Source: Escherichia phage PO103-1. From it: a stretch of 53,040 bases of DNA. Below the pieces are notes generated by a model, which worked only from the letters and a program-made list of their open reading frames with translations, was not told where the DNA came from and made no database searches. Below are positions 12,211 through 15,882 of this stretch, piece after piece; the stretch's first letter is position 1; every line of letters starts with the position of its first letter. The DNA lies in the sequence record NC_079175.1. One strand, given 5' to 3'. A program made the position numbers and the translations under genes.

Positions 12211-15200
12211 TTATCTACGTTCCATTGCACCATTACCCATGTTGATTGTTTGGGTAACAGTTTGACCGTTCGGAGTTGACACGGTTGCAGACGCTTGTTT
12301 GTTGTTTACGGTAGCTTTGACTTCAACGTTAACTATGGTGGGCTGTGTCTGACCATAGGACAGTCCGTTTCTGGTGAATCCAGTTGCACCTTCTGCAATA
12401 GAATCTCCCTGAGAAGCCCATTCGCGGTACTTCTTGACACGGTTCTGTGCCTGTAGCGGAACAGCGTTCAGCCAGTCGGTTCCATGTTTGTTGATAGCAT
12501 CATCAACAGTTCCGGCACCATCTGTGTACGCCGCCATAGCCTTCTCAGCGTCACCATTATATCGCTTAAGCATTGCATCGTAATAGTCACGACCAACACG
12601 GGCACGTTCTTCAAGTGAGTTATCTTTGGCAGGACGAACACCAAAGCCAGGGTCACGAGAAGTTGAATCAAGAACTTGCATACGACCTTTAGCACCAGTT
12701 GGCGATGTAACTACCGAACCATCTGCGTTAAAATCGCGGTTCCCTGACTCTTCTCCTGCGATAAAGTCATAAACATTACGTGCTGCATCGGCTGTGCCGT
12801 TGGAGGCCACACGCATCGTTCTAGCGGCATCGCCACCTGCCTCAATAAAGGTGCTGCCGTATGAGATTGCAGCTTGCGGAACGGCGTATCCAGGCAATAC
12901 CCCAGCACGCTCCGTCTGCGCGATTCCTAGCTGTGCAACGCCTTCGGCATAGTTTGAGTCGGCTCCGCGCTTAACGTTCGCCTCAGCCTCGCCCATGCTG
13001 TATTCTGTGCGGTCATAGGCACGGGCCATGCCATCCAGACCAGCCATTTGCATTGCACCAGCAATACGGGCCTGACTCCAACCCCGTTCCTGACCACGCT
13101 CACGCATTATCCGCGCTAGGGCCACAGGGTCGCCCTGTGCCGCACGAATGTCGCCAATTGTGATAAGACCACGGGTTCCCTGAACGATGTTCACAGCGCC
13201 GCTGGGGTCGCCATTTAGGAGGGTGTTATAGGCACTATGTGTGGTTTGATTGAGTCGATTGGCTTGTTGCGAGTTAAGTCCCAACATTTCCATGCCCTGA
13301 GTCATGGAAGAGTATTCGTTAGGATTATTAACACCAGCATCCAAAGAATTGCCGTAGAAGTCGTTCAGACCTTCCAGAGCTTCGTTTCCAATCTGGGCAG
13401 CACCAATAGCCATGCCAGCCACACGACCCCAAGGAGTCATCATGAGGGCATTCATTGCGCCATTGGATAATGAACCAATGCTGCCACCAGCTACGCCAGC
13501 AGCCAATGCTCCACCAGCACGACCGAAGTCATCTGAGAAGCTACCGCCAACTCTCCAACCACCACGACCGCCGCCACCAGAACCGCCTCCGCTGATACCA
13601 TAACTGCTGGCATCAAATGTATCCCAGAAGCCACCACCGCCACCACGACCGTCATTTCCACCAAAGTCGGCATCTTGTCCACGCAGTTTGTTTTCTTCCT
13701 GTGCAGCAAGAATACCTTTCTTGACAGATACTGCCATCGAGTCATTGCCAGTCGTGCTGTCAGAGCCTACGGCAGAAGTCGTGGCCTCACCAATTCCAGC
13801 ATCAGTGCGGTTGCCTATGAATGGGTCATCAGGTGTTCCAGCTACGGCAGAATATCCACGAGTTGACCTTTGCTTAACATCTTTCCAGATGCCATCGCCA
13901 GTCATTGCAGCACGAGCACCCTTGATTAATTCATCATTAGGTAGGTCTGGATTATCTTCAACAAACTTTCGACCAGCATTGAGACGCCCAATAGTAGAAT
14001 CAATCTTATCTTTGTTGCGCTCGTACCATCCCTCGTCTTTCTCAATCCACTCAGATACCGTCTTGTCTCCGATTGTCTGAGAGAACAGTGCACGACTACG
14101 GCCAGATACAAGCAAGCCAAATTGAATTTGGTCGAAATAGTCCTTATGCTCGCCAGCAGAGAGATTAGAAAACTTTTTAGCCCTTTCAGGATTCTTGTGT
14201 TCCCAAATCGCGTCATCACCGATAAGGCCATCTGGAGAATACATGAACGACGGATAATTGTCATTTGTTATTGCGCCAGCTTGCTCGATATCGAATCCAA
14301 ACTCTTTGGCGACACGGTTACGAGCAATTTCTTCCGTCCGATGACCTGCTTCGAACATTCTTTTAGTAAATTCACTTGGCCCCTTTCCGCGTTGTAGGCC
14401 AATTTTATCAATCATTGCAGCCCAAGGTCGGGTGTATTCATTGTTACCAAGAAACGAACCAACAGTGGAGCCAGTAATGTCGTATTGTTTGCGGAAGTCC
14501 AACCATTCCTGAGTTCCCTGTTCCATGTTGTGATAATGGATTGGGCCTTCTTTCGGAGCTGGTTGTGGAGCAGAGTCCAAGTTAGATATAGCAATACTCT
14601 CACGACGAGCGCGAGCAGAGTTCCAACTCGTTGGTGAATCGAGTTGCGTAATAAACTCTGTTGAAGGACTTAGTTCGGCAGGTTCAGTATTTCTTAAGCG
14701 TTCAGCAGGGTCAAATGTCTTGCTTACTTCTGCCTCGTTATATTGGTGAGCGTTCTCAAGTACACCACGGATGGATGCACCAGAGTAGCGAGGGTCGTCA
14801 CCAATATCTTTCTTAAGATTCTCATACCCAGAACGAACATCTATAATGTCTGCATAGCGGGAAGCAGAATCAAGAATCAAATCTCTGTCAGAAGATTGAG
14901 TGCGATACGCATTCATCCCTCTTTCAGCATCACCAGAATATACCTTTGCCGCAGACTTAACTACGCTAGAAACATCTTGGTACAGCGTCCTACTTACATC
15001 AGACCAGCCTGGTGAGCCAGATAAAGACGCAGATAGTGAGTATTCAGCGTTAATGCCGCTGCCAAATGAACCAAGTGGTAAACCAGATGCGTTAAGTGGC
15101 TGTCGAGGGTGTTGGATACCACTGACAATTGATTCAGAGCCAAGTTTAGGCAATGAATCCATGTATGAAAGTTTTGGCCCCGACTTATTTCCTACATTCA

Positions 15201-15882
15201 TTGCAGATACGGCAGCAACTTCTCGGAAGTTTTGCGGCAATTCTGATTCTAAACGTTTGGCTACACGATAAACATCTCGTGCATAGCGGTCTGGGTTGTC
15301 GTATCGTTCACGGTCAACATACATGTGGGCAAGATAGCCGAACGACTTGGCAATATCTCCACGGTTTGTGGAGTACTCGCCCATAATGTCGCCTGTATAA
15401 TGTCCAGGAAGCTCCGGCATTATATCTTGATGGCCTGTCAGCGTATCACGCATGTACGCATTAAGCATTCCCCAATGACCTTCCGGTTTGTTCGGGTTTG
15501 CTTTGGGCATGTGCATCCACACATCATCGGCGGATACACCTAATTTCTCCATGTAGGCATGAATAGCTTCTACATGGTGACTTGGACCGTTCATTGCAGC
15601 ATGGAATGTTTCAGTCAGCCCAGCGCCAGAAATCATCTGTGCAATGTGGGCTGAGTCTGAAATCATGTCGGAAGTGCCATAAGAGATGCCATCATCTTCT
15701 GTATGAGTTTCTTCCATAAGCTGCGAATTTGTTTCCATCCAACCAGATGCAGCACTTGATTCAAGTTGCTGTGCCATATCTCGTTTGCGCATACCTGGAT
15801 TGAACGACAGACCATATTGAGCGCCTAAGCCAATCAATTCAGCTTCGGACATTCTCATCAAATCTTTTATGTTATTAGCCAT
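12211..15882 (-). CDS. Tape-measure-position giant protein with YqaJ-like nuclease domain, Gly-rich linker and C-terminal lytic transglycosylase domain
   Basis: 1223 aa between tail chaperone and baseplate genes; QGTQEWLDFR...SPDGLIGDDAIWEHKNP resembles YqaJ PD-(D/E)XK motifs; GGGGG-rich stretch; EESGNRDF...TGAKGRMQV resembles the SLT catalytic motif. Confidence 0.6.
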   Translation of the reverse strand: MANNIKDLMRMSEAELIGLGAQYGLSFNPGMRKRDMAQQLESSAASGWMETNSQLMEETHTEDDGISYGTSDMISDSAHIAQMISGAGLTETFHAAMNGPSHHVEAIHAYMEKLGVSADDVWMHMPKANPNKPEGHWGMLNAYMRDTLTGHQDIMPELPGHYTGDIMGEYSTNRGDIAKSFGYLAHMYVDRERYDNPDRYARDVYRVAKRLESELPQNFREVAAVSAMNVGNKSGPKLSYMDSLPKLGSESIVSGIQHPRQPLNASGLPLGSFGSGINAEYSLSASLSGSPGWSDVSRTLYQDVSSVVKSAAKVYSGDAERGMNAYRTQSSDRDLILDSASRYADIIDVRSGYENLKKDIGDDPRYSGASIRGVLENAHQYNEAEVSKTFDPAERLRNTEPAELSPSTEFITQLDSPTSWNSARARRESIAISNLDSAPQPAPKEGPIHYHNMEQGTQEWLDFRKQYDITGSTVGSFLGNNEYTRPWAAMIDKIGLQRGKGPSEFTKRMFEAGHRTEEIARNRVAKEFGFDIEQAGAITNDNYPSFMYSPDGLIGDDAIWEHKNPERAKKFSNLSAGEHKDYFDQIQFGLLVSGRSRALFSQTIGDKTVSEWIEKDEGWYERNKDKIDSTIGRLNAGRKFVEDNPDLPNDELIKGARAAMTGDGIWKDVKQRSTRGYSAVAGTPDDPFIGNRTDAGIGEATTSAVGSDSTTGNDSMAVSVKKGILAAQEENKLRGQDADFGGNDGRGGGGGFWDTFDASSYGISGGGSGGGGRGGWRVGGSFSDDFGRAGGALAAGVAGGSIGSLSNGAMNALMMTPWGRVAGMAIGAAQIGNEALEGLNDFYGNSLDAGVNNPNEYSSMTQGMEMLGLNSQQANRLNQTTHSAYNTLLNGDPSGAVNIVQGTRGLITIGDIRAAQGDPVALARIMRERGQERGWSQARIAGAMQMAGLDGMARAYDRTEYSMGEAEANVKRGADSNYAEGVAQLGIAQTERAGVLPGYAVPQAAISYGSTFIEAGGDAARTMRVASNGTADAARNVYDFIAGEESGNRDFNADGSVVTSPTGAKGRMQVLDSTSRDPGFGVRPAKDNSLEERARVGRDYYDAMLKRYNGDAEKAMAAYTDGAGTVDDAINKHGTDWLNAVPLQAQNRVKKYREWASQGDSIAEGATGFTRNGLSYGQTQPTIVNVEVKATVNNKQASATVSTPNGQTVTQTINMGNGAMERR

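Follow-up and report, generated by a model that had tools for sequence, protein, structure and literature searches.

What would a nuclease do that enters the cell immediately before the phage's own linear genome? The question is raised by a gene of Escherichia phage PO103-1 (NC_079175.1), whose record of 53,040 nucleotides (nt), analyzed as a whole, is here called the window. An earlier note on this DNA had described an open reading frame (ORF) at 12211-15882 in the position of the tape measure protein (TMP); the ORF is real and encodes 1223 amino acids (aa) on the minus strand, which that note had left unstated. We consider it very likely that the product is a virion protein in the TMP slot which combines an intact exonuclease with a lytic transglycosylase. 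The architecture is observed in the comparisons below, and from it we infer the function: at a probability of roughly 0.5, this is the TMP of a Carltongylesvirus myophage with two enzymatic cargo domains, the exonuclease of which would act on double-stranded DNA ends after ejection.

An exonuclease and a lytic transglycosylase in one protein

The features of the exonuclease domain are as follows.
13903-14550, minus strand: lambda exonuclease/YqaJ-type PD-(D/E)XK exonuclease domain, residues 445-660 (Pfam, AlphaFold2, Foldseek, PDB profile)
14194-14232, minus strand: catalytic core D551...E561-H-K563 (counterparts of D119/E129/K131 in lambda exonuclease)
14491-14520, minus strand: QGTQEWLDFR motif, in which W460 and R464 correspond to W24 and R28 of lambda exonuclease

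The earlier note had proposed a YqaJ-like nuclease in the middle of the protein, and the Pfam family YqaJ (PF09588) does match residues 459-595 (E=2.2e-12, 47.9 bits against a cut-off of 22) over positions 1-149 of its 150-position profile. The motifs it had quoted from this region are present as QGTQEWLDFR at residues 455-464, ITGSTVGSFLG at 469-479, and SPDGLIGDDAIWEHKNP at 549-565. An AlphaFold model of residues 430-650, built from a 58-sequence family alignment, has the lambda exonuclease fold with a mean predicted local distance difference test (pLDDT) score of 92.4 and a predicted template modeling score (pTM) of 0.87. In Foldseek searches of the PDB, the best match of this model was LHK-Exo (3SYY; E=3.4e-10, template modeling [TM] score 0.79), followed by lambda exonuclease structures (1AVQ, 3SLP, and 3SM4; TM score ~0.68), with the top matches 3SYY, 3SLP, and 1AVQ at E ~1e-10 and RecE matching weakly. 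The family profile compared to the PDB likewise found LHK-Exo (1.3e-16) and lambda exonuclease (6e-7).

Profile alignment places every key residue of lambda exonuclease on a counterpart in the window protein: W24 and R28 on W460 and R464, E85 on E517, D119 on D551, E129 on E561, and K131 on K563. The position of K131 is anchored by the chain carrying K131A, which aligned at K563, and for R28, E85, D119, and E129 we assume the standard numbering. R28, the equivalent of R464, is the arginine that binds the 5'-phosphate. The Y..Q.Q motif of lambda exonuclease aligns with Y582, Q585, and Q587. Conservation was assessed in 104 proteins of at least 800 aa that carry the domain, down to ~30% full-length identity. 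All 104 have E517, D551, E561, and K563, as well as Y582, Q585, and Q587, and 103 have R464, the remaining one being an alignment gap. In the family alignment, no block of the protein is better conserved than the exonuclease core, and the ratio of nonsynonymous to synonymous substitution rates (dN/dS) of the domain relative to Yersinia phage PYps23T is 0.10, like that of the rest of the protein. The earlier note had been prepared to drop the idea if the central region lacked a YqaJ match or fold or if its catalytic residues varied among homologues; the region has both match and fold, and the residues are constant. Judged from its sequence, the domain is apparently intact and active.

This invariance bears on whether the exonuclease fold has instead been co-opted as a structural part, such as a ring for trimerization, a plug, or a device that grasps the DNA end and draws the genome out after the tape measure, in which case the domain would not be there to hydrolyze DNA. 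TMPs are oligomeric, the closest solved relatives (1AVQ and 3SYY) are ring-shaped trimers, and Mu N and T4 gp2 are precedents for virion proteins that hold DNA ends. However, catalytic and metal-binding residues that are invariant in 104 sequences are needless for structure alone, which makes a structural role very unlikely, with the caveat that metal-dependent end binding without turnover could preserve the same residues.

The second enzymatic domain lies toward the C-terminus.
12403-12780, minus strand: SLT-type lytic transglycosylase domain, residues 1035-1160, catalytic E1045-S1046

Here, too, the reading of the earlier note was borne out, as Pfam SLT (PF01464) matches residues 1058-1134 (E=1.2e-6, 28.5 bits against a cut-off of 21.3) and the motifs EESGNRDF (1044-1051) and TGAKGRMQV (1062-1070) are present. 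The E1045-S1046 pair is kept in 57 of the 58 aligned sequences, and PDB profile matches of the region belong to the Slt family at ~1e-4. One homologue of 1236 aa (P0032) has a different C-terminus without SLT, which was aligned to window residues ~1030-1223. It carries Gln at the position of the catalytic Glu, and PF09588 is its sole precomputed Pfam domain, which suggests that the transglycosylase module is replaceable while the exonuclease is kept.

The gene occupies the tape measure slot

The window is 98% identical in nucleotide sequence to Shigella phage vB_Shi_2KOFFS and Escherichia phage Ecp_YSF across 14 kb and 89-91% identical to the Yersinia PYps23T group, and it is essentially an entire Carltongylesvirus genome (family Chaseviridae, subfamily Cleopatravirinae). 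Nearly all of its genes are on the minus strand. Carltongylesvirus and its kin in the Chaseviridae are myoviruses whose RNA polymerase and replication module are T7-like; Chaseviridae genomes are linear, non-permuted, and 52-56 kb long with terminal repeats of ~3 kb, and the tails measure 116-166 nm (PMC12842549). No direct repeat of at least 60 nt was found within window positions 1-53040, so that the ~3-kb terminal repeat is single or collapsed in the window and the physical ends are unreadable there. The genes of the tail module around the 1223-aa gene are listed here.
16990-18438, minus strand: tail sheath gene (annotation of 98%-identical phage records)
16525-16980, minus strand: tail tube gene (annotation of 98%-identical phage records)
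16051-16509, minus strand: tail assembly chaperone gene, 152 aa, directly upstream of the 1223-aa gene (Pfam Phage_TAC_15, E=3.6e-15)
16147-16153, minus strand: -1 slippery heptamer T_TTT_TTC, in phase, inside the chaperone gene
12211-15882, minus strand: 1223-aa gene in the tape measure slot (PHROG 19855, 'virion structural protein')
11038-12144, minus strand: baseplate hub gene, downstream of the 1223-aa gene (PHROG 196)
10136-11086, minus strand: gene for a Dit-like protein, downstream baseplate gene
9017-9808, minus strand: spike gene, downstream baseplate gene

The order on the minus strand is therefore sheath, tube, chaperone, 1223-aa gene, hub, Dit-like, and spike, then wedge proteins and fibers. 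This is the tape measure position that had been claimed for the gene, between the chaperone upstream and the baseplate genes downstream, and no second TMP candidate was found between tube and baseplate in the window. The chaperone gene adds a further indication. Its -1 frame is open for ~90 codons, the stop codon that ends it (15875-15877) overlaps the ATG with which the 1223-aa gene begins, and the heptamer T_TTT_TTC looks like a programmed frameshift site of the G/GT type. Relatives annotate the shifted frame merely as a separate small 'hypothetical protein'. A chaperone frameshift directly upstream is a hallmark of tape measure genes.

Two further lines of evidence associate the protein family with the particle. 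In PHROGs, the full-length match was phrog_19855, annotated 'virion structural protein', while the center also matched RecE-like exonuclease families and the C-terminus matched endolysin and lytic tail families. In phage 4HA13, a homologue with 64-66% identity was found in purified particles by liquid chromatography-tandem mass spectrometry (PMC9699118). The length of the protein is compatible with a ruler, in that the 881 residues outside both enzyme domains at 1.5 Å each amount to 132 nm, inside the 116-166 nm range, although this is only a consistency check. Similarity searches did not identify the protein as a TMP: no TMP family was found in Pfam at E≤1 with the whole protein or at E≤5 with fragments 1-60, 75-380, and 667-991, and no TMP chain was among its PDB sequence or fold search matches.

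Labels for the family in GenBank include tail fiber, tape measure, tail tube initiator, virion structural protein, and putative endonuclease. The protein was called 'main tail fiber' in a discussion of host range (PMC8762354), which is almost certainly a mis-annotation. The label is of practical consequence, as the protein is widely mis-annotated as a tail fiber and has been used in this way to discuss host range.

Regions outside the two enzyme domains

The remainder of the protein consists of the following regions.
14551-15882, minus strand: N-terminal region, residues 1-444
13378-13902, minus strand: Gly-rich linker (25% Gly), residues 661-835, predicted to be disordered
13390-13509, minus strand: two moderately hydrophobic Gly/Ala-rich segments, residues 792-831, ending the linker
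12913-13377, minus strand: conserved helical module, residues 836-990, with GTRGLITIGDIR...GWSQARIAGAM

Within the N-terminal region, residues 75-380 are predicted to form a mostly helical domain (pLDDT ~75-90) for which no Pfam or PDB relative was found, and residues 380-444 are predicted to be disordered. A helix-hairpin DNA-binding motif in the first ~45 residues was considered and dropped; Pfam gave just DUF7722 at E=0.21. The helical module at residues 836-990 had no Pfam match, but among the blocks of the protein it ranks second in conservation, and even the most distant homologues keep it. PDB sequence and fold searches of the protein returned only the exonuclease and SLT matches. The AlphaFold model of residues 1-1199 had a mean pLDDT of 66.8 and a pTM of 0.33, with low confidence for the C-terminal tail after SLT.

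A possible role during genome entry

TMPs precede the DNA out of the tail, with the C-terminus in front. They are increasingly viewed as a conduit for DNA at the inner membrane and also as something that host immunity targets; they are reported to help the genome to pass this membrane (bioRxiv 10.1101/2025.11.03.685801). If it behaves like other TMPs, the 1223-aa protein would leave the tail tube before the DNA with its C-terminus leading. The SLT domain would then open the peptidoglycan, the Gly-rich hydrophobic stretch might help to cross or line the inner membrane, and the exonuclease domains would refold at the cytoplasmic side. TMPs are often trimers, and both lambda exonuclease and LHK-Exo form rings of three subunits, so the exonuclease copies may form a trimeric ring as well.

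Enzymes of the lambda exonuclease family require a 5'-phosphorylated double-stranded end. The first such end that the exonuclease would meet is that of the phage's own terminally redundant, non-permuted genome, and this requirement, together with the conserved R464, makes the phage's own defined end the obvious substrate. One possible outcome is that the 5' strand would be resected and the ~3-kb terminal repeats would anneal into circles or concatemers; another is that the end would be occupied and thereby denied to RecBCD. The odds that the nuclease, once ejected, does its work in the cell being infected are only a little short of even, and that the phage's own genome ends would be its substrate is a tentative proposal.

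Several points weigh against this reading. No long coiled coil is predicted, and the AlphaFold model is a series of globular and disordered segments; at 53% helix (pTM 0.33) and with a longest helix of only 32 residues, the protein is, as a predicted monomer, unlike the textbook coiled-coil tape measure. In L007, a distant relative, the chaperone and the exonuclease protein are separated by extra ORFs. A folded domain of 25 kDa in at least three copies should not fit the tail tube lumen of ~4 nm, which would call for an unfolded or staggered state during storage; storage of folded domains in the tube is a difficulty common to all readings. The phage already has a 5'-3' exonuclease for later steps. 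Finally, the phage might harm itself by sending a processive nuclease in directly before its own DNA.

The first two of these points could mean that the protein is not the length ruler at all and is an ejected pilot or internal protein in the TMP gene position, comparable to T7 gp16. Globular domains joined by disordered linkers without a long helix would suit such a protein, its SLT domain matches T7 gp16, if weakly (E=0.04), and in L007 other ORFs do separate the chaperone from the exonuclease protein. The largest of these, of 515 aa, has no similarity to the window protein, and ruler and nuclease carrier may be separate proteins in that lineage. In the window, however, there is no alternative TMP candidate from tube to baseplate, the chaperone with its -1 frameshift is directly upstream, and the count of non-enzymatic residues agrees with the reported tail length, all of which makes a pilot protein highly improbable. 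In L007 itself, three ORFs of 515, 350, and 109 aa at 6869-9998 separate the chaperone from the exonuclease-bearing protein of 962 aa; none of the three is in the gene table.

The fusion is lineage-specific and its exonuclease domain is exchanged as a cassette

The full architecture was found in 78 phage records, all Chaseviridae-like in hosts and genome sizes, and 85 protein clusters of ~1200 aa share it, most of them with both Pfam domains precomputed. An exhaustive search with the exonuclease domain only, covering 1.8 billion cluster representatives, identified further large proteins of 962-1534 aa in which the domain is internal, some of them also with SLT. Two distant homologues (P0107 and P0155) are encoded in the same tail-module region, behind sheath, tube, and chaperone genes. 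P0107 follows the chaperone directly, and P0155 follows it after three uncalled ORFs, with Dit-like and spike genes downstream on its contig. Both share the helical module with the window protein. Outside the Chaseviridae-type lineage, all matches in the phage collection and in BFVD were free-standing recombination exonucleases of at most 700 aa. On this distribution, the fusion of TMP and exonuclease is old, stable, and lineage-specific.

Some candidates contributed nothing to this picture. Another apparent large carrier of the domain (P0109) was rejected as a spurious repetitive sequence, and Aeromonas phage phiA050, the nearest cultured relative of the distant homologues, was not used, being poorly annotated with a fragmented gene. 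A word-indexed search with the domain only returned seven small proteins alone and is uninformative on other architectures.

Among close relatives, the structural module of the window is 88-97% identical to that of phage MLP1 (OK148439, L008) in 300-nt tiles. Inside the 1223-aa gene, nucleotide similarity collapses only at 13741-14640 (~9200-10000 in L008). The other break in the structural module is a single tile, 21241-21540, where a small gene near the capsid gene has been replaced. Protein identity to MLP1 is 0.87 in the N-terminal part, 0.55 in the exonuclease, 0.88 in the middle, and 0.96 in the C-terminal part. Both alleles of the exonuclease retain every catalytic residue, and that of MLP1 has the same pattern of key residues as the phiEcoM-GJ1 allele. 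Since the collapse within the gene is confined to the exonuclease domain, the domain appears to have been exchanged as a cassette between lineages.

Exchange of this kind bears on the form in which the nuclease was first proposed, namely as acting on host or competitor DNA at injection. Read more broadly, it would attack DNA other than the phage's own and serve as a pre-made offensive or anti-defense weapon before phage gene expression. Such a weapon might be aimed at broken host DNA, at linear plasmids, at the linear genomes of co-infecting or resident phages, or at the DNA of defense systems. The cassette exchange somewhat favors this reading, as a domain at 55% protein identity between flanks at ~90% in close relatives is typical of the parts exchanged in an arms race. 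The intact and strictly conserved active site also suits a weapon, and delivery by the particle would give it an advantage in time. However, enzymes of the lambda exonuclease family require a free double-stranded end, the Arg that binds the 5'-phosphate is conserved in the window protein, and an intact host chromosome offers no such end. Few copies would enter per infection, and bulk degradation is already covered by the endonucleases and the FEN-type exonuclease of the genome. As the intact chromosome lacks ends and the phage genome has them, host or competitor DNA, as originally worded, is not the likeliest substrate, and we regard a weapon against non-self DNA as unlikely.

A narrower form of the preferred reading, in which the exonuclease acts on double-stranded ends after ejection, would accommodate the cassette exchange as well. 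The exonuclease would sit as a ready-made ring where the injection channel opens into the cytoplasm and would thread and resect the leading end of the genome during entry. Ejection would then be coupled to annealing of the 3-kb repeats or to end protection before any phage gene is expressed, and exchange of the domain would reflect host counter-measures against it. Such threading is an attractive but doubtful possibility.

Recombination and replication context

The nuclease could also act in the cell that produces the phage, in recombination-dependent replication, concatemer processing, or recycling of host DNA, with its packaging being incidental. This would be in keeping with a genome that encodes no other enzyme of the lambda exonuclease type. 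Before tail assembly, the globular domain would be free and already folded, and a folded domain that is sterically awkward in the tube fits a role before assembly. The setting of the gene points elsewhere, as the exonuclease domain is encoded in the late tail operon, and late expression together with the low stoichiometry of TMPs is a poor match for a replication function. The fusion, moreover, is stable from ~30% to 100% identity at a constant internal position in a TMP-slot protein, where a free enzyme would suffice.

No annealing-protein partner was found for the nuclease: RecT, Erf, Rad52, and Sak proteins were absent from the annotation of relatives, and none came up when the larger ORFs of unknown function were scanned against PHROG and Pfam. 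The genome has its own FEN-type 5'-3' exonuclease at 29670-30707 (Pfam 5_3_exonuc_N), and also encodes SSB, endonucleases, ligase, DNA polymerase, and a primase/helicase. Lacking an annealing partner and with a FEN-type exonuclease encoded elsewhere, the domain is not half of a classical Red-type pair of exonuclease and annealase, and a role in the producer cell is quite unlikely.

Comparison with known systems

Lambda exonuclease, LHK-Exo, and YqaJ (PF09588) share with the window domain the fold (TM score 0.68-0.79), the active site, the 5'-phosphate-binding Arg, and the Y..Q.Q motif. They are free-standing 5'-3' recombination exonucleases of phages and prophages, ~200-230 aa in length, and their genes adjoin that of an annealing protein (Red-beta, RecT, or YqaK) within early or recombination modules, whereas the window exonuclease is embedded as residues 445-660 in a 1223-aa tail protein, is encoded in a late structural operon, and has no annealing gene that could be found.

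Parallels for the arrangement as a whole are T5 Pb2 and the TMP of mycobacteriophage TM4, which are tape measures with muralytic cargo domains. They likewise occupy the TMP slot and carry an enzyme for entry, and the SLT domain described here fits this pattern. Their cargo degrades the cell wall, whereas DNA exonuclease cargo was confined to the family of the window in BFVD and the phage collection. T7 gp16 is ejected before the DNA and cuts peptidoglycan; the window protein has a weak profile match to its transglycosylase (E=0.04-0.055), and T7-like RNA polymerase and replication genes are common to the phage family of the window. In contrast to the window protein, which derives from a contractile-tail module, gp16 belongs to a podovirus capsid core, has its transglycosylase at the N-terminus, and is without a nuclease. 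Mu N (gp43) and T4 gp2 are injected virion proteins that bind and protect genome ends, and may be functional analogues as particle-borne proteins that engage the ends of an incoming linear genome. No sequence or fold relation to either was detected, and neither is a PD-(D/E)XK nuclease.

Significance of the fusion

No paper discussing the fusion was found in the literature on tape measures with nuclease or exonuclease domains or on Chaseviridae. The earlier note had called a nuclease unfamiliar as a component of a tape measure, which holds for the literature found; the architecture itself is already in databases, where one record is labeled 'putative endonuclease'. Muralytic cargo of TMPs is already known, and a conserved DNA exonuclease as TMP cargo appears to be new.

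If the phage's own ends are the substrate, resection and cyclization of a terminally redundant genome before gene expression would be a mechanism undescribed for tailed phages, as would protection of the genome ends from RecBCD. The same would be true of a particle-borne weapon against other DNA, if that reading proved right, and threading of the genome through a ring would be an entry strategy undescribed for any phage. The system is tractable, with E. coli hosts and ~80 relatives that have been sequenced, and the domain exists in two natural alleles.

Other observations in the window

Next to the SSB gene (45322-45696), a protein of 300 aa is encoded at 44322-45224 on the minus strand. Its N-terminal half belongs to the parts of the early region that diverge most from MLP1; no Pfam match was found for the protein. 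The major capsid gene of the window is a single ORF of 346 aa at 20195-21235. In the 98%-identical Shigella phage record PV615261 (L001), it is represented by two coding sequences at 15197-16203, a split that is probably a sequencing or annotation artifact.

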